Positions 5,584 to 64,000 of a stretch of 64,000 nt of DNA are shown one piece after another. The notes beneath the pieces are model-generated. The model did not search any database and was not told where the DNA came from. It saw nothing but the letters and a program-made list of their open reading frames with translations. The DNA is from Vermamoeba vermiformis (lineage: Eukaryota). The stretch is taken from NCBI GenBank assembly GCA_045837725.1, contig JBEWZL010000124.1:558001-622000 (forward strand), read 5' to 3'. Each line of letters starts with the position of its first letter. The first letter of the stretch is position 1. A program made the position numbers and the translations under genes.

Positions 5584-9072
<3,489 letters not shown>

Positions 9073-9155
9073 ATATTAATTTGATCCTGCACCAAGGCAA
9101 ATAAATTGGATTTGATTCAATTTTATTTACTAAAATTTACTTTTCTGAACATGTG

Positions 9156-11244
9156 TCAACGTAATTTAGCCTTCTTTATAGGAATGAATTTTGCCTCTTC
9201 AGAACTCCAGTACTCCACTTCAGTGAAGGTTTCATTGTGCCACACATGCAGTAACCTGACATCTTGACTGGTCATTGAAGTGTAGGCATTGTGTTCAGCT
9301 GGTTTTTGCATGGTGAAGTGGATGACCCATGCCTCTTGTGCATTGAGAACCTCTTTGAACTTGACAGCTCTATCAATGTGTTCTTGAATCTTCTCAATAG
9401 GAGCAGTGGCTACTAACTCAAGCAATGTCATGTAACCAGGGTATTTCAACACTAGATTGCAGTATTGTGTATCATTCTTGACATTGATTTCACTGAACAC
9501 TGAGACATCAGAAGGCAGCCAAGTTCTTAGAATAGCAAACAATTCAGTATGGTACACAGCTTCTTGTGGCACAAGGACTGTTGGTAGCCAAGGTACTTGC
9601 ACAATCTTCCCTGAAACTCTTGGTGCTGCTTCAATGACTGCAGAGTTGATACTGGCAATAGCCTGCACTAGCAATTGTCCAACATTAAGTCTTCTCCCAA
9701 TCTGGCCAGGGATGGAATGCCATGGAACTCCAATTGAGGGAATAGGGTGCTTGTCAACTACATTCACACGTTGTAGCAAAAGTAGATGGATGAAAGGTGA
9801 TGGTATTCTGAATGTAGTATTCTTTGGTGGTACTGTTGTCATAGCTCCTTCAGCAGCCAAGTATTTGACCTCATTCCAATTGCCATCAATATCTACTGGA
9901 GCTGTCAGGTTGGGCAAAAACCATTTTCTGAGCACTGCTCTTGCTGCCTTAGTCTTTGGGTCACTCTTTGTTAGAGCTTTCCCTATCCTGATTAAAGTGG
10001 GCCAAGAAGCCACATCAGATAATAGCCTTGACAAGGCATAATCTATCCATGCTTGGTAAGTTGTGATCTGCATGGCAGCAAGTTGTTTGCCAAAAATGCA
10101 AATGAGACCAGGGTGGCCTGCTGTCCTTTCATAGATGTCATCAATGATCTTTGATTCTACTGGGGTGTTGTGTTGTTTGAACAAGTGATGGACTTGTTCT
10201 TTTGTCCAGAATTGAATTTGCATTGGGCTGATGTTGAAAGGAGAAGCAGCTTGACTTGGTAATTCCAGAATGCTGAAGGGTCCAATGCCAATGAAAGATT
10301 GCAGGCAGTATGCCTCTCCTGCTTGCTTGATGGCTTTCAGAGTGTTCACAATTGAGTCAAGCACTTGTTGAGGTGCGTCAAGGAGTGTATCAAATTCATC
10401 AACAAAAAGAACAAATTTCTTTCCAAACAACAGTGTCTGGTTTGCAGATGTGAAAAAGTGTCGAAAATCACTTTGCTGAAGCCATAAGAGGCACCTTGAC
10501 ATGCTTGTTTTCTGCCTGCAAAGCAGCACTGAATTCTTTCCAGAATATTTTGACATTGCTGCTGTTTAAGCCTTGGATTGAAACAGTGAGGCAAATGAAG
10601 TCATCCTTCAACATTTCTTGTGCTCTGAACATTAAGGTTGATTTGCCTGAGGCACAAGGACCATGCAGCATTACATAAGACCCTTTATGAATGTCAGGGA
10701 TGAGAGTCTGCTTAATTTGCAGCTCTGGATCAACATAGCAGTAGTGAAGGCGCTTCTTTGCATCTATGGCTCCATGGATGGGAAGATCTTTCTTTGCAGC
10801 TGGCACTGGAGATTGGGTCACTTTCTGCGAGGATTGTTTGGCCTGTTGTAGTGGCTTGCTTGACCAGAAAGAGCAGACTTTGAGAGAGGAGGGCAATGCT
10901 CTGTTACAACAAGTGAGAACTTATTTATTTGCTTTGCGGAGCTTACTTGCCGAGATCCCTGCGAGAGCGTAATTTGCTCAAGGAACAGAGTTCCAATGGG
11001 TGAACAAGGCGAGCTGTATGTAATATAGTTAGTACACGAACTAGCTGCTGTGTCCTTTCAATTATTAAAATTAATTTGAATTTAATTAGTTTTCTTGCTC
11101 CTTCAAAAAATCACGAGGGCAAAATATTAATAATGTTCCCAAATAATTCAGAACAATACATATTATTAACCTACGAAACTTGCATTTCGATTTCCGCCTC
11201 AGGAATGCACTGGTGAAAATGCAGTGTGAAACTCGCTGGAACAT
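9156..11244 (-). CDS. P-loop NTPase (AAA/STAND-like) with C-terminal PD-(D/E)xK-like nuclease (Crinkler-type architecture); one frameshift at ~10472
   Basis: Walker A GPCASGKST, Walker B FVDEFD and RTAGHPGL. C-terminal EAVYHTEL...CNLVL...LLELVAT...AWVIHFT. Exons 11244-11175, 11013-10947 and 10900-9156 join in phase. Confidence 0.75.
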
Positions 11245-11346
11245 TTGCAAGCCTAAAAATATTGCGTTGTGGTTGGATTCTTCGGCGCCGGGTGTGAAAT
11301 TGTAGGTGTGAGTTATTTACATTTAACGGTAACTCGCTATTAACAT

Positions 11347-12709
11347 CTAGAAGCACTTTCTGTGCACGACTGAGGGCCCAGACTCATCGTACTCTGCCTT
11401 CGAGAGCCACATCTGCGCGTTGCTCGTTATAGAGCCGATGATTGAGCCGCCGATCCAGACCGAATATTTGCGCTCAGGCGGTGCAATAATCTTAATATTA
11501 GCCACTGATGGAGCGAGGGCAGTGATTTCACGCTGCAATCTGTCTGCAAAGCCCGGGAATAAGGTGCTGCCGCCACACAGAACAATGCTGCTGTACAGTT
11601 CTTGGCGGATGGAGGGATCGGTTTTAACGATCGCGTTGTGTACTGTCTCGGCGATACCAGCGCACTCGAGACCATATAAAGAGGGTTGAAATAAGACTTC
11701 GGGGCATCTGAATCGTTCGTTGCCTGAAAATATAAGAAGGGTCGTTAGGAGATTCGTATCTTGGAATTTTAGATCCGTTCAACTTACCCACAGTAACAAC
11801 CTCGCCGGCTGGTAATTCATAGGTCTTTTCTATTATAGACGTTTCAGCAGCTTGTTGCATTGCTACGTCATAGTCTAACGCAACGTAACAGAGTTTTTCC
11901 TTCATATCTCGCGCAATCTCCCGTTCAGCGGTAGTACTGAACGAGATCCCTCGTCCATCGCTCAATATTTTCATTAAATAGTCGGTCAAGTTAAGACCAC
12001 CCAGATCCGTCTTGGTGCACGCATGAGGCAAGGCAAAACCTTCGTAAATTGGCGAGGCTAAACAAAGACCTTCACCGCAGTCTAAAACCACGCCAGTGCC
12101 TCGACCAGATGCAGTTAATGCTAATGTCGCTTGATTGGCGAGGTAATACGCAGGCACGGCGAATGTCTCGAACATGATCTGCGTTGTTTTTTCTTTGTGG
12201 GCACGTGGGTTTGAAGGTGATTCGCTGATTAAGACGGGGTGTTCTTCGGGACTTATACGCAGCTCGTTGTAGAAGGTGTGGTGCCAGATCTTTTCCATAT
12301 CGTCCCAGTTTGTAACGATGCCTATGGAGCTGAAATTAGTAACGTCAAAATCCACCACATCCACCAATTTATGAGATCTTCAAAAATGGTAATAAAAAGC
12401 TATTTTAATATGGCGATAAATTATTTGGTATTTACGACGATGAATTGAATAATTATTATCATCTTTTTTTACGATTTTTTTCATACCATTAACAACGGGG
12501 TATTTATCGACCAATGTGGAGCGTTTGCGTGTAGCCATTTCATCGCCGACATAAGCGTCCTTTTGGCCCATGCCGACCATCACACCGGTGTGGGGAGGAC
12601 GACGTACGATGTTAGGGAAGACCGCACGAGGAGCGTCATCACCAGCAAATCCGGCTTTGACCATGGCAGATCCGCCGTCAATTACGATCGCAGGAAATTC
12701 ATCAGCCAT
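11347..12709 (-). CDS. Divergent actin / actin-like protein, two introns
   Basis: [45 protein letters not shown] and C-terminal VHRKCF. Confidence 0.92.
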
Positions 12710-13238
12710 ATCATATTGTAGTTATGTACAGGCCTGGATTATAGACGAATAATTAATAACGTTGAAAATTTGAAAACGACACAAATCAACCACAAAAATC
12801 CTGGAATTTATCAGAATAGATTCTAAAAATATTGAGCATATTTACGAGCGTATTGATTTCATTATTCTTTTGTTACGGCCATAAAATCAAAACGTTAATA
12901 AATATTTTTCATACCTGACCTTTTAAATGACTTCCTACTGTAAATACAATAGCAGGACTGCGATATAGGTGTACGTCGTGTTATAAGGCTGCTTTGTTGC
13001 TGCGTTTTCCTTTTTTAGATCACGAAAAAGATTCGTAACGGTAAAAATTTTATTTCGTAATAATTTTTGTTCAAACGGCACCACAAATGGCATTTTGGGA
13101 CATACTTCCCGATGCTTTGTACGTAGCATTGATAATTGCAAGCGGATCTGACGTAATTTTAACGTTCAATTCTTTTAAAGCAAAAAGAAAGCACCGAAGA
13201 CATTAAAATTCAAAAAAGATATAAAAAAGGATTCTACT

Positions 13239-32293: not shown

Positions 32294-32329
32294 TATAGTA
32301 AATAAATAGAGGTTGTTTTACTTCAATTT

Positions 32330-40791: not shown

Positions 40792-43700
40792 CTAATTAGA
40801 GTAATCTAGTACTTGAGTATTCGGCAAGGAGCTTTGAGATCCGGTTTGATTGGTATTATTGGTGCTATTATCTTCGTCTATATTATAACTCCAGCCATCC
40901 CAATGCAACTGTGACGAATTCAACGAGCTTTTTAGACTTGAGCCACTAGAAATGATATTTTGTTTAGTCAATGCGCTCGGTACTTGTTCGTTATTTTCTT
41001 CATCGTTACCATTCTTAGCAGCCTCATCTTCGACATGCTGGCTGTTGCTCTCGACAAATTTCAGTACATCAGCCATATCCACGTTATCACTAGTGTTGGT
41101 CTCGCTTAAAGGCAAGTGAGATTTGAGCGCGTCATCGACTGGCAACTCTTTCTTGATCTCGTCAAGTAGTGCGTCAACGTCTTCGTGTTTGCTGGACTTG
41201 AGGCTACCATTGCTCTTGTGGAGATTGGAATCGACTTGCATAGCTTCAGTGGGCTGCTGGGGCTTAGTTTCAGCTGGTTCTTGCTTCACCTCACCGGTAC
41301 CAAGCTCGCTGATGCGCAGCTCTTGACTGCGTGTCAACATAAACTCGCTCATATCAATGCCATCCAAGGCCTCAGCAAAATCAGCATCGAGTGGGGCTGG
41401 TGCTGGTGCGGGTTGTGGTGCCGGCTGCTCTTCTTCTTTCGGGAAGGCAAAGGCTTCGATTCTCTTGGGACTCTTGGGCTTTGACGGAGATGGGGGCGGG
41501 AATAACGATCTCTTGGCAGCTGAAGGGGCTGGGGCAGGTGACTTGGGCTGTGCGGCGTGTCCATTAGGCGTTGCCAGGTGCTTTTGAGGCGTGCTGGACA
41601 AGCTGCGTGGCGGTGATCTGCTGGGACTTCGTGCAGGTGATTTGGCCTTCATGGGTGTCGTGATAGGCTTCAACAAACCAGCGGCCTTGAGTCGGTCGTG
41701 AAGACTTTGCAACTCTTTAATCGTTTGGATCTTGCAGCTGGCCTCGCCGACAAACTCCGACTCTTCCACTGAATTGACACGATGATCGGACAACGTGCTG
41801 GCCACGACAAAGTTGTGACGGATGAAGGTGACTTGTTCGAGAATTCTGTCGTACTCGCGGATATTTGTCTCGTAGATGGCTTTGAGCTCCTGCGCTGGTC
41901 TGCGGAACAAAGTTTTTCCGACTGAATCGAAGGCAGTGACGTTGCATTGGCCAGTGTGATCGCCAATCAACATTTTCAAACGGTAACTTGTGCTCGGGAC
42001 GTCCAACTCAATAAAGCAATGTTCGCAGAAGAATTTTCCGTCGCCAGCACCAGTCGGCAAGACACGTCTGTTGCACTGTGGGCACGAGCTGTACCAAGGC
42101 ACTTGACCGCTCGGCATCACTGTCTTGATGAAGGCTGACACCAAGTGATAGCCCTTCACAGCTGAGATGTACTGGCGCACGTCGTTGACCGTGGCTTTCT
42201 TGACGAGTGGCTTCTGGAACTCGACTTTTTCACGCACGATTGACTCGAGTGTGGTCACGAGATCGAGTGACAAGTGACAGTGAACCAAGTCCAATTTTGG
42301 CAAGTGATTGTAATGGCCTTTCAATTGCTCGAACAATCCGTCGCTGAGGTTGTTGCATCCGCGTAACTTCAATGCGCGCAATCTCTTCATTATTCCGCTG
42401 CGCAAAAACTCCACTAATGTTCCGTCGTGCATTTTAGGGTTGTACTGAAGTTCCAAGTTTTTGACGTGTGGTAAACGCGAGAGGCACGACACGATGGCTG
42501 CTGTCGAGATAGGACAGCTGTCTAAGCGGAGATCTACCAAATTAGGAAAGTGGTCTGGCAAGGTCTTCACAATGTCGTCGTTAATGGCTGGCAAATAAGA
42601 CAAGTCTAGTGTTCTTAAAGTTGTCTTTTGCACGCCATCGAGTGCTTCGACCAGGGCTGTTCTATCGATATTTTTGCAACGTCTGAATGTCAGTTCTTCC
42701 AAATTAGGCAATGTTCTGATTATATTCTTGAAGATCTTAGCAGAAACGTTGCAATCAGAAATGATTATCGTCTTCAAGTTGGTGCATTTGCTGACCAATG
42801 TGTTGATGCCCTTGTCAGTCACGGCATTGCAATCGAACAAATCAATCTTTGCAAGTGTTTTTTGCAATTCTCCGGCCACGAGAAATGCGAGGGTTTCATC
42901 AGTGATCTGACATCGACGAAGCGAAATTTCTTCGAGTACTTTCATCTCGGACGCAATCTGCTTGATAAGCTACAAACATGAGCAACATTAGTACTTGCCT
43001 AACATATTAACTTTTCGAGGAAGATCCGATCCAACAATGAGATCCAGATCAAAATTATTACTTACCTCGTCGTTGATCTTGCACTCCGTCAAGTTCAAAA
43101 ATTTCATGCCGGTGAATTTTGCAATGACGGTCAAAGTGTCGGAGGTGAGGGTAGAATTGCCCCACAAATCGAGTTCAGTCAAGTCAGTGCACTGATCCAT
43201 CAATAGCTTGAACTTCTCGGGCACGATCAGACCACGACGCAACGACAATTGTTTCAGTGAATCACCGCTATTCTCGAATATCTTCTCCCAAGGAGCCACG
43301 TTCTCAAGCACGACCACATCCGTAAGATCCAACGAACGGAATTGGCGTTTGCTGAATAGCGATTCGATGATGGCGGTAGGTCCCATATAAGTACCCCACA
43401 TATCAATCTCGACGACATTCGGCGTGGCAGCAATGATCTGTTGGATCGCGTCGAGCGGAATAAATGTTTTGTGGAGTGACAAGACTTGCAGCTTTTCATG
43501 AACGAATGCTGTCGTGTCGCTATTTTCAGTTTTAACTGCCGGCTGTTGCTGTTCTTTGATTTCTTCGGTCGGTACTTGCAGAGATTTCATGCGGATGCGG
43601 ACTTTGGCTGCTTGAAGATTCTCCAAATTGGGACAAAGCTTCAATATTCTTATAAGTGCTAGTGGATCGTCGAATGTTGATTCTGAGATGTCCAAATGTC

Positions 43701-44166
43701 GTAATTTTGAAGCGATTGGGGTGAGAAGTTTGATCAGATCGTCGAGCGAAAAGTTGCAGTTTCGTACGTTAATCCACTCGAGGTTCTGGCACTTCGAAAC
43801 CATATTAAATACTCTTAATCTAGCCTCTTTGTTGTATAGATTGTACGGGCGGCACAAGCGGAAGCTGAGATGCTTGACGTGGCTGAGAAATTCTAACGAG
43901 TGCACGATCTTCGACCAAGAGCGCGAAAGTTGTGCCGCGATGCCAAAAGTTGATGGGAATGGCAAAAATGATAATATATAGGCGATTACATCGTTCGTTA
44001 AAAATTCAGTTTGATTTTCTTCGAACTTTTGTCGTTTGGCGGGAGGTCTAAAATAACGAAATTAATTTACAGAATAATTTATTATTTTGAGTATAACTTA
44101 CTCTTCAACCGATCCTTCATTTGGCGTTATTTCCTCAATTTTTCGTTTTTTTGTTGCATTTTCCAT
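40792..44166 (-). CDS. F-box/LRR protein fused to RPA70 C-terminal (Zn-finger OB-fold) domain and disordered tail
   Basis: F-box LTNDVIAYILSFLP...LSRSW; many cysteine-containing LRRs; WYSSCPQCNRRV...FFCEHC...YRLKMLIGDHTG...TAFD. Confidence 0.85.
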
Positions 44167-63657: not shown

Positions 63658-64000
63658 ACAGAGAGCTCCTTTTCTGGTTCGGATGTAGATTTGTAAAGTA
63701 GTCGCGCGAATAAATTTAGCTGGTAAACTAGCATCATATAAATACTAAGGCTATTCTTATTGTTGTTTTGAAACGTTGCAAACTCGGAAGAATTTTATTG
63801 GAGCCCGGCCGGTGATTTAAATGAAAAAAAACCCGAAAGAAATAAAAGATAAGATTAATTCAATTAAAGCAACACGTCAACACTTAATCGGACTTAACCT
63901 GCTTGGTATCAACGTAAATAGCAGGTAGTGAAGGTAGTCGAAAGAAAGAACTCTGATCGACGACGTTGCACCTACGAAATACGTTGAACAAGCAGATCGA

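Follow-up and report, generated by a model that had tools for sequence, protein, structure and literature searches.

Deamination of 5-methylcytosine (5mC) depletes CpG dinucleotides in vertebrate genomes and in the gene-body-methylated genes of invertebrates, and in fungi, repeats are subject to repeat-induced point mutation (RIP) and RIP-like hypermutation. Among unicellular eukaryotes with sparse, repressive methylation, Amoebidium is reportedly one of the examples. The passages on methylation in Sarre et al. 2025 (PMC12344493) describe this mode for Acanthamoeba castellanii, in which 1.3% of the CpGs are methylated, on silenced or foreign genes and young transposable elements (TEs), as well as for Cyanophora and other unicellular eukaryotes; in the discussion of the same article, 5mC is treated as mutagenic, so that a CpG>TpG footprint would be the expected long-term trace. 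Sharply delimited regions with near-100% methylation are described for Acanthamoeba Neff and C3 in the corresponding passages of Blais et al. 2025 (PMC12210455). The locus analyzed here lies in a 64,000-nucleotide stretch of DNA from Vermamoeba vermiformis (NCBI GenBank assembly GCA_045837725.1, contig JBEWZL010000124.1, positions 558,001 to 622,000 of the forward strand; hereinafter the window, in which all positions are counted). It is a single minus-strand gene, predicted to encode an NTPase of the STAND type with a C-terminal nuclease-like domain, from which almost all CpGs have disappeared, along with short adjoining segments (hereinafter the CpG desert).

This locus resembles the methylation of Acanthamoeba, as presented in the passages cited above, in that a near-unmethylated genome overall would be combined with sharply delimited islands on particular genes in a likely amoebozoan host. 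Unlike in Acanthamoeba, methylation is read here from the footprint alone. The apparent target differs as well, being one resident-looking, 1.9-kb gene for a bacterial-type STAND NTPase rather than a giant-virus island or a TE, and the open reading frame (ORF) seems to have been under selection while its CpGs were lost, in contrast to the methylated genes in these passages, which are described as silent. CpG deserts are not described in the main-text passages on methylation of the Acanthamoeba and other protist articles, supplements aside. The likeness to the vertebrate and invertebrate cases consists in the loss of CpG with a rise of TpG and CpA on both strands, and in the hotspots formed by Arg CGN codons, with replacements by Cys, His, Gln and Trp; in contrast to those cases, in which depletion is genome-wide or affects housekeeping genes, the adjacent USP and actin-like genes are untouched, and a single gene stands at an observed/expected ratio (o/e) of 0.06. 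With fungal RIP, the locus has in common that C>T mutation affects a defined segment throughout and ends sharply, but the target is CpG and not CpA, no duplicate is known, and the reading frame is preserved.

A CpG desert co-extensive with one gene

Between positions 9181 and 10920, there are 5 CG dinucleotides in 1740 nt at a GC content of 0.433, exactly as roughly counted in an initial sequence-only reading of this DNA. The CpG o/e of this segment is 0.062, compared to 1.157 for the whole 64-kb window, whereas the o/e values of TpG, CpA and GpC are 1.55, 1.65 and 1.28, respectively. All 1740-nt windows in the 64 kb that are clear of this region contain between 61 and 137 CpGs (median 85), with an o/e of 0.90-1.67, so that the scan places the desert outside the normal range, as that reading had anticipated. 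Ranked by length, the top three CpG-free gaps in the 64 kb (609, 607 and 289 nt) are all located in the desert, and the next one measures 159 nt. The only CpGs that are left between 9039 and 10937 are those at 9160, 9769, 10376, 10462, 10751 and 10828.

A two-rate likelihood scan delineates a maximum-likelihood low-CpG segment whose first and last cytosines are at 9047 and 10932. Of the 369 cytosines in this segment, 6 are followed by G, compared to 238 of 895 outside (log-likelihood gain 71; binomial P = 1e-36 given the outside rate). The desert is co-extensive with the minus-strand ORF at 9156-10920, beyond which it extends by no more than 17 nt in the 5' direction and by about 50-115 nt in the 3' direction. 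The flanks have ordinary CpG contents, with o/e of 1.06 in the USP gene (6702-9072), 1.12 in the 5' flank (10937-11346) and 1.23 in the actin-like gene (11347-12721), in agreement with the earlier description of both neighboring genes as CpG-normal.

Mass balance of the CpG-specific change

The composition of the gene was compared to a reference set of 15 long ORFs from the same window (3972 codons; hereinafter host ORFs). Three of the 16 dinucleotides deviate from the host ORFs, namely CG (z -6.2), CA (+3.7) and TG (+2.7), and the other 13 are within 1.6 standard deviations (SD). The deficit affects all three codon contexts in which CpG can occur: among the 587 codons, there are 4 CpGs in the CGN context versus 19.5 expected, 1 versus 28.2 in the NCG context, and 1 versus 57.8 at the C|G codon junctions. 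The total CpG deficit (99.5) is almost exactly offset by the excess of TG and CA, which adds up to 100.1 over these contexts. With the mass balance closed in this way, undoing the CpG changes would restore an ordinary, host-like gene. The rise is strand-symmetric, with TpG at 1.63 and CpA at 1.54 on the coding strand.

The dependence on the following base is apparent in the two-fold degenerate codons that end in a pyrimidine (Y). Before a codon that starts with a base other than G, the ratio of C-ending to T-ending codons is 64:25 (370:310 in the host ORFs); before one that starts with G, it is 1:36 (217:119 in the host ORFs). The choice among xAR codons (0.62; host ORF range 0.27-0.69) and that among Y-ending codons away from G (0.72; host range 0.24-0.81) are ordinary, and the composition of the CpG-independent sites shows no sign of foreignness. 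Arginine is encoded by AGR and CGN codons in a ratio of 14:4, compared to 62:132 in the host ORFs, and 4 of the 6 surviving CpGs are in Arg CGN codons, for which there is no synonymous escape.

Several processes that produce C>T changes can be discarded on these numbers. Strand-asymmetric deamination, either transcription-coupled or APOBEC-like, is ruled out by the equal rise of TpG and CpA. The classical RIP of ascomycetes, which turns CpA into TpA, is incompatible with a TpA o/e of 0.46 that is below the host ORF mean of 0.66, and general AT drift with the GpC o/e of 1.29 and with the preference for C-ending codons away from G.

Polarity of the changes and possible selection during the decay

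Homologs of the encoded protein are few (14 proteins). The closest one (hereinafter P0001) is 90% identical, and no other protein homolog that was found exceeds 47% identity. The sequence-only reading had proposed that the Walker A motif GPCASGKST derives from GPR by a CGT>TGT change, and that a C-N-L motif of the nuclease-like domain derives from C-D-L. Both motifs are present, with the codons TGT and TGC|AAT at the respective positions, and the alignment bears out the proposed direction: the Walker A position is occupied by Arg in 9 of the 9 more distant homologs, and the nuclease position by Asp in 7 of the 9 outgroups (N D T D D D D D D). P0001 shares both the Cys and the Asn. Among the 17 Arg columns that are conserved in the outgroups, the window retains Arg at 6 (5 AGR codons and 1 CGC), and at 6 of the 11 replaced columns, the residues are C, H, H, W, Q and Q, i.e., the products of CGN deamination. 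Replacements caused by first-position G>A changes are preceded by C in 7 of 12 cases, versus a background of 22% (binomial P 0.007). Altogether, the ratio of deamination-type to reverse replacements is 14:1 in the window and 16:2 in P0001, compared to 73:39 for the 9 other family members pooled (Fisher P 0.036 versus the window). The C>T bias that an alignment had been expected to reveal is thus present, and the deamination signature holds with respect to dinucleotide specificity, strand symmetry, mass balance and polarity alike.

Since the window and P0001 have the Cys, the Asn and the six replacements by C, H, Q or W in common, the CpG decay is older than the split between the two. P0001 is probably the ortholog from a divergent strain or sister species because the protein of the neighboring actin-like gene has a 98% identical counterpart (P0111, on a 2.4-kb contig) from the same source. 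The age of the changes bears on a second proposal of the sequence-only reading, namely recent acquisition of the gene from a CpG-depleted donor. This proposal found no positive support: the composition is host-like, and the changes, which P0001 has as well at 90% identity, are thus not recent.

The routes by which the CpGs were lost are mostly synonymous. The NCA context exceeds the expectation by 30.6 compared to 0.7 for NTG, and the T|G junctions by 31.4 compared to 14.7 for C|A. The host usage (36 CGA among 132 CGN) predicts about 5 CGA codons, but no stop codon of the CGA>TGA type is found. Because of this prevalence of synonymous routes, the protein appears to have been functional, or under selection, while the CpGs decayed; the asymmetry is suggestive rather than conclusive because individual host ORFs vary widely in these codon-context classes (SD of 11-17 for each class). 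The window and P0001 differ at 65 of 587 residues, and the differences fall in 20 of 236 conserved columns and in 32 of 287 variable ones (P 0.38), which is not evidence of neutrality. The CpG deamination proposed by the sequence-only reading accordingly stands, whereas the long-term silencing of a foreign, selfish or toxic gene that it invoked would need to be qualified, given the mainly synonymous losses in a protein that seems to have been under selection.

CpG poverty intrinsic to this family was considered and rejected: two homologous loci (L002 and L003, 31-34% identical) are CpG-normal, with o/e of 1.15 and 1.22, similar to their own flanks. A third locus (L004) belongs to a generally CpG-poor contig (0.45; flank 0.38). 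The closest metagenomic relative (L001:62-1333, 41% identical) has an o/e of 0.58, and its Y|G junctions contain C in 1 case and T in 12. The frame of L001 is broken, the longest ORF covering 236 of the approximately 417 matched residues, and its CpG poverty can be read either way because the sequence comes without flanks.

Possible targeted methylation and the alternatives

The conversion described above is CpG-specific, strand-symmetric, mass-balanced, polarized with respect to the homologs, sharp-edged and older than the split from P0001. We give an even chance to the explanation that the desert arose by deamination of 5mC in a sharply bounded block of about 1.9 kb in which both strands had long carried CpG methylation. 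Under this scenario, a block co-extensive with the intronless main exon would have been methylated over the long term on both strands, with the flanks spared and the genome otherwise unmethylated; spontaneous deamination of 5mC would have converted about 100 CpGs in place, to either TpG or CpA; protein-level selection would have steered most of the losses into synonymous changes; and some replacements of conserved residues, including R>C in Walker A and D>N in the nuclease-like domain, would have become fixed anyway. The mutagen would then be 5mC, the block would be a discrete target of a silencing system, perhaps perceived as an intronless or foreign-looking copy, and methylation might be ongoing today.

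Several observations weigh against this scenario. The CpG o/e of the window is above 1 overall, so that any methylation system would have to be very sparse. The 5' border lies within 17 nt of the ORF start and, if the candidate exon 1 (Table 1) is real, is inside the transcription unit; with exon 1 and the intron untouched, such a border is as compatible with the edge of inserted DNA as with a chromatin domain. The dominance of synonymous routes, suggestive as it is, sits badly with simple permanent silencing, and the CpG poverty of L001, also at synonymous sites, points to a possible inherited or donor-side cause. Furthermore, methylated genes are less enriched for prokaryotic lateral gene transfer than for viral ancestry according to the passages in PMC12344493, and the NTPase family appears to be of a bacterial type.

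Some of these features would be accounted for by import of an intronless block that had evolved under purifying selection in a CpG-suppressing genome or element. The donor could have been viral, a mobile element or a relative with methylation; its block would have landed between the USP and actin-like genes, which are convergent, and the desert would represent the donor composition. Borders that follow the ORF closely (with an excess of up to 17 nt at its 5' end and of about 50-115 nt at its 3' end), the absence of introns from the block next to an intron-rich gene, and the 14-nt inverted repeat around it, with a 13/14 match that is reached in only 2-14 of 3000 simulations, are all compatible with insertion. 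The dominance of synonymous routes is the expected outcome of a long evolution in a CpG-suppressing host, the relative L001 is CpG-poor too, and by a rough estimate, the six surviving CpGs approximate the number that would have arisen by new mutation since the split from P0001. Nevertheless, we consider import fairly unlikely. The other 13 dinucleotides and the choices among xAR and Y-ending codons are host-like, and the CpG deficit equals the TG and CA excess when measured against the host ORFs, so that the donor would have to be a compositional twin of the host. To our knowledge, an o/e of 0.06 is below that of the coding DNA of nearly any natural genome. The 3' tail contains a poly(A) motif of the host type, there is neither a target-site duplication nor a poly(A) tail, and the core of the inverted repeat resembles the local poly(A) signal (31 matches in the window versus 12.3 expected). 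The searches of viral contigs yielded no relative (0 of 26 pattern candidates confirmed and 0 exact matches to a 26-nt border stretch), and besides P0001, no homolog closer than 47% was found.

The alternatives that involve other causes of CpG loss on the resident gene fare less well. In some basidiomycetes, repeats reportedly undergo RIP-like, CpG-directed mutation, and a burst of such hypermutation on a duplicated gene, for which long-term methylation would not be needed, could explain why 94% of the expected CpGs are gone within razor-sharp borders, as for a homology-defined unit; the intronless copy could be the duplicate. A burst of this kind seems improbable, however, given that no second copy is known and P0001 looks like an ortholog, that classical RIP is excluded by the TpA ratio, and that both types of routes would be hit equally and TGA would be made from CGA, whereas the synonymous routes are favored and no stop is present where about 5 CGA codons are expected. 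A similarly low probability is assigned to selection against CpG itself, whereby CpG-containing copies would be silenced, cut or penalized and CpG-free variants favored, e.g., as an escape from CpG-directed silencing. The total avoidance of CpG at synonymous sites together with the strong preference for C-ending codons elsewhere, the AGR:CGN ratio of the Arg codons (14:4 versus 62:132 in the host ORFs) and the maintenance of the ORF are in line with selection. However, conserved residues have been lost as predicted from deamination (R>C/H/Q/W, and D>N after C), which argues for mutation pressure rather than recoding; the neighboring genes show no such avoidance; and we know of no mechanism for selection on CpG in a single nuclear gene. 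As this kind of selection presupposes a CpG-directed system, it amounts to a variant of the methylation scenario. An artifact is extremely unlikely, be it a chimeric assembly or base-calling that is systematically wrong at methylated sites. The frame shift in the gene does sit in a run of A, but the independent record P0001 carries the same Cys, Asn and six C/H/Q/W replacements, and the borders of the desert coincide with those of the reading frame, which chimeras do not respect. Contigs from 4 runs of one sample contain 0.41-0.79 of the sampled words from 8700-11400, a segment that spans both borders, although this is a weak point given that the sample may be the source of the assembly; the small shares in water and aquifer metagenomes (0.13-0.21) do not enter into this assessment, and no RNA run is among the listed carriers. 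Altogether, the footprint is real, striking and well delimited, and most likely reflects a known kind of process, targeted cytosine methylation followed by deamination, on an unusual target.

The encoded protein and its relatives

The second reading frame of the gene, taken alone, scores 21.9 bits with the Pfam profile AAA_35 (PF14516), below the threshold of 27 bits, whereas the relatives exceed it (27.8 for the full-length, 90% identical P0001, 29.1 for P0003 and 32.5 for P0011). All neighbors in the ESM Atlas are bacterial clusters with AAA_35, DUF8371 or PDDEXK annotations, and the NTPase family looks bacterial in type. An AlphaFold (AF2) model was produced for P0001, i.e., for the relative and not for the broken copy in the window (predicted local distance difference test score 77.3). 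Foldseek matches of this model include NLR resistosomes, CED-4, Apaf-1, SSO1545, PAB2304 and ORC/Cdc6, with E values from 2e-9 to 1e-7, and as judged from the model, the protein is a STAND/AAA+ NOD module that consists of a P-loop, a helical and a winged-helix domain. The Foldseek matches cover the NTPase part. In the C-terminal 150 residues, the modeled helices (H) and strands (E) follow the order of the PD-(D/E)xK core (H456-470, E476-482, E489-496, E499-507, H511-528, E532-539). The nuclease label denotes a resemblance rather than demonstrated membership because no Pfam nuclease family matched either the window frame or the relatives, the (D/E)xK motif of the third core strand is absent family-wide, the sequence reading E-L-V without a Lys, and where the second core strand begins, the window and P0001 have Asn in place of the catalytic Asp. 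Searches against PADLOC matched 0 of 5 proteins, NCBIfam produced nothing above threshold, only sub-threshold matches to Sll1717-ATPase, and Rfam had 0 matches in the entire window.

The only named organism among the sources of the homologs is the amoebozoan Nolandella, whose protein has a long presequence-like N-terminus, and two of the metagenomic homologous loci contain introns. Thus far, the family shares Walker A and Walker B with the bacterial NTPases of the AAA_35/ATPase_2 type, fused to DUF8371 or PD-(D/E)xK domains, and with the STAND NODs (NB-ARC, CED-4/Apaf-1, and the archaeal SSO1545 and PAB2304). Unlike these proteins, it is a eukaryotic family, as indicated by Nolandella and the intron-bearing metagenomic loci, with a presequence-like N-terminus and no repeat sensor domain.

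Gene structure, block ends and neighboring genes

The coordinates of the features of the locus are given in Table 1. Directly upstream of codon 1 stands a TAA (10921-10923), and the conserved N-terminal block has no in-frame ATG before it. The window copy is frame-shifted, whereas P0001 is uninterrupted over 590 residues: at the frame-shift site, the window reads ..MASAK* followed by SDFRHFF.. in the next frame, where P0001 has an unbroken ..MASASNFRHFF... This frame shift is either a genuine lesion or an assembly error. The candidate 5' exon would restore the start codon and encodes a basic, acid-free peptide; with 3 CpGs in 70 nt, it is CpG-normal. The sequence-only reading had referred to several CpG-normal 5' exons of the gene, of which this single candidate is left. 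The implied intron (10921-11174) is 254 nt long and contains 7 CpGs (o/e 0.92). The exon stays a candidate because the intron is long, about four times the length of those in the USP gene, and the acceptor is weak; if it is real, the desert starts at the boundary of exon 2. The USP gene has three apparent introns of 58-64 nt within 0.5 kb, compared to none in the NTPase ORF, which was correctly described at the outset as intronless. Two other arrangements were rejected, a 27-nt intron at 10920-10946, which would be far shorter than the USP introns, and a coding exon directly upstream in the frame of codon 1, which is closed by a TGA at 10978-10980. The plus strand opposite the NTPase gene contains an open frame of 201 codons (9436-10041), which most likely results from the skewed composition (TpA o/e 0.46, CpG gone) and does not represent a gene.

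Table 1. Features of the NTPase locus and of the CpG desert, with positions in the window
Feature	Positions	Strand	Remarks
CpG desert	9047..10936	.	6 CpG per ~1.9 kb; nearest outside CpGs at 9039 and 10937
Inverted repeat, left arm CAAGGCAAATAAAT	9093..9106	+	14 nt; 21 nt past the USP stop (TAA 9070-9072); contains AATAAA
Poly(A)-signal-like motif GTAAATAAAA	9121..9130	-	26 nt past the NTPase stop; type seen after other ORFs of the window
Second reading frame, NTPase gene	9156..10472	-	438 codons and stop TGA 9156-9158; Walker B, rest of the STAND-like module, C-terminal nuclease-like domain
C-N-L at the conserved C-D-[LVM] of the family	9453..9461	-	Codons TGC AAT CTA; second strand of the nuclease-like domain
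Walker B FVLFVDEFD	10389..10415	-	Nearly invariant in homolog alignment A1
One-base frame shift	about 10470..10476	-	One A extra compared to P0001; in-frame TGA at 10468-10470
N-terminal reading frame, NTPase gene	10474..10920	-	149 codons; presequence-like stretch, conserved NGAI..DP block, Walker A
Walker A GPCASGKST	10636..10662	-	Fits GxxxxGK[ST]; Cys codon TGT at 10654-10656
Inverted repeat, right arm CAAAGCAAATAAAT	10923..10936	-	Fills the gap from the first outside CpG (10937) to codon 1 (10920)
Candidate 5' exon	11175..11244	-	ATG at 11244, GTAGGT donor at 11174, AAG acceptor at 10921/10920; splice keeps the frame

The arms of the inverted repeat are complementary at 13 of 14 positions, bracket the desert exactly, and are the only two exact matches to their pattern in the 64 kb; simulated border zones were as good as the observed one in 2-14 of 3000 cases. 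A related motif, [GA][TC]AAATAAAT (10-mer core, at most 1 mismatch), has 31 matches in the window versus 12.3 expected, e.g., at 32298-32307 (+), 63706-63715 (+), 9121-9130 (-) and 11313-11322 (-). It is probably the polyadenylation signal of this organism because it tends to sit just downstream of ORF ends. The arms themselves may simply be poly(A) signals, given that the core is over-represented after ORF ends and that the left arm follows the USP stop by 21 nt. A DNA transposon with terminal inverted repeats was rejected as an interpretation of the block: apart from the 14-nt inverted repeat, there is no target-site duplication in the flanks and no transposase domain. Among the features of a processed retrocopy, the intronless ORF is present, and a poly(A) tail and a target-site duplication in the flanks are not. 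The USP stop (TAA 9070-9072) and the NTPase stop (9156-9158) are convergent and only 83 nt apart, so that the 3' untranslated regions of the two genes abut or overlap, and read-through antisense transcription over the NTPase exon is conceivable.

Among named organisms, Balamuthia (70%) and Acanthamoeba (69%) match the USP exon best, barely ahead of animals; on this basis, an amoebozoan affiliation is no more than probable. A 92% identical protein to the exon at 6903-7490 (+) is found in the Joint Genome Institute (JGI) metagenomes (P0136), and with 27 member sequences, it indicates that close relatives are common in sequenced environments. On the other side of the desert, the actin-like gene (minus strand) encodes a divergent paralog that is 66-69% identical to standard actins, as determined with a 180-residue exon as the query. 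Elsewhere in the window, two adjacent large ORFs (40792-44061, minus strand) join F-box/LRR repeats with a C-terminal (OB-fold) domain of replication factor A, an unusual pairing. Among the 16 large ORFs of the window that were scanned, none contains a TE domain, and none matches a methyltransferase family.

Implications

If 5mC is the cause of the desert, the bare genome sequence would show that a gene has been kept methylated over evolutionary time, with borders resolved to about 20 nt. Under the same condition, the CpG o/e of individual genes combined with the mass balance of TG and CA would provide a cheap genome-wide screen for the targets of repressive methylation in lineages without methylomes. 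The locus is a test case for how methylation systems choose and delimit their targets. Methylation would also have eroded motifs of the gene itself, such as the Walker A Arg and the Asp of the nuclease-like domain, and the signs of selection at the protein level during the decay question the simple equation of methylated with dead. A more specific version of the methylation scenario, which we regard as quite unlikely, is that a STAND NTPase-nuclease gene maintained by selection, whose product is possibly targeted to an organelle or acts as an immune or suicide effector, has been under a long-term, exon-exact 5mC lock while the genome is otherwise unmethylated, with the borders set by sequence recognition of the repeat-bracketed block. 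If true, a functional host gene of an amoebozoan would be subject to gene-specific, heritable and facultative cytosine methylation, and this could be read from the sequence alone.

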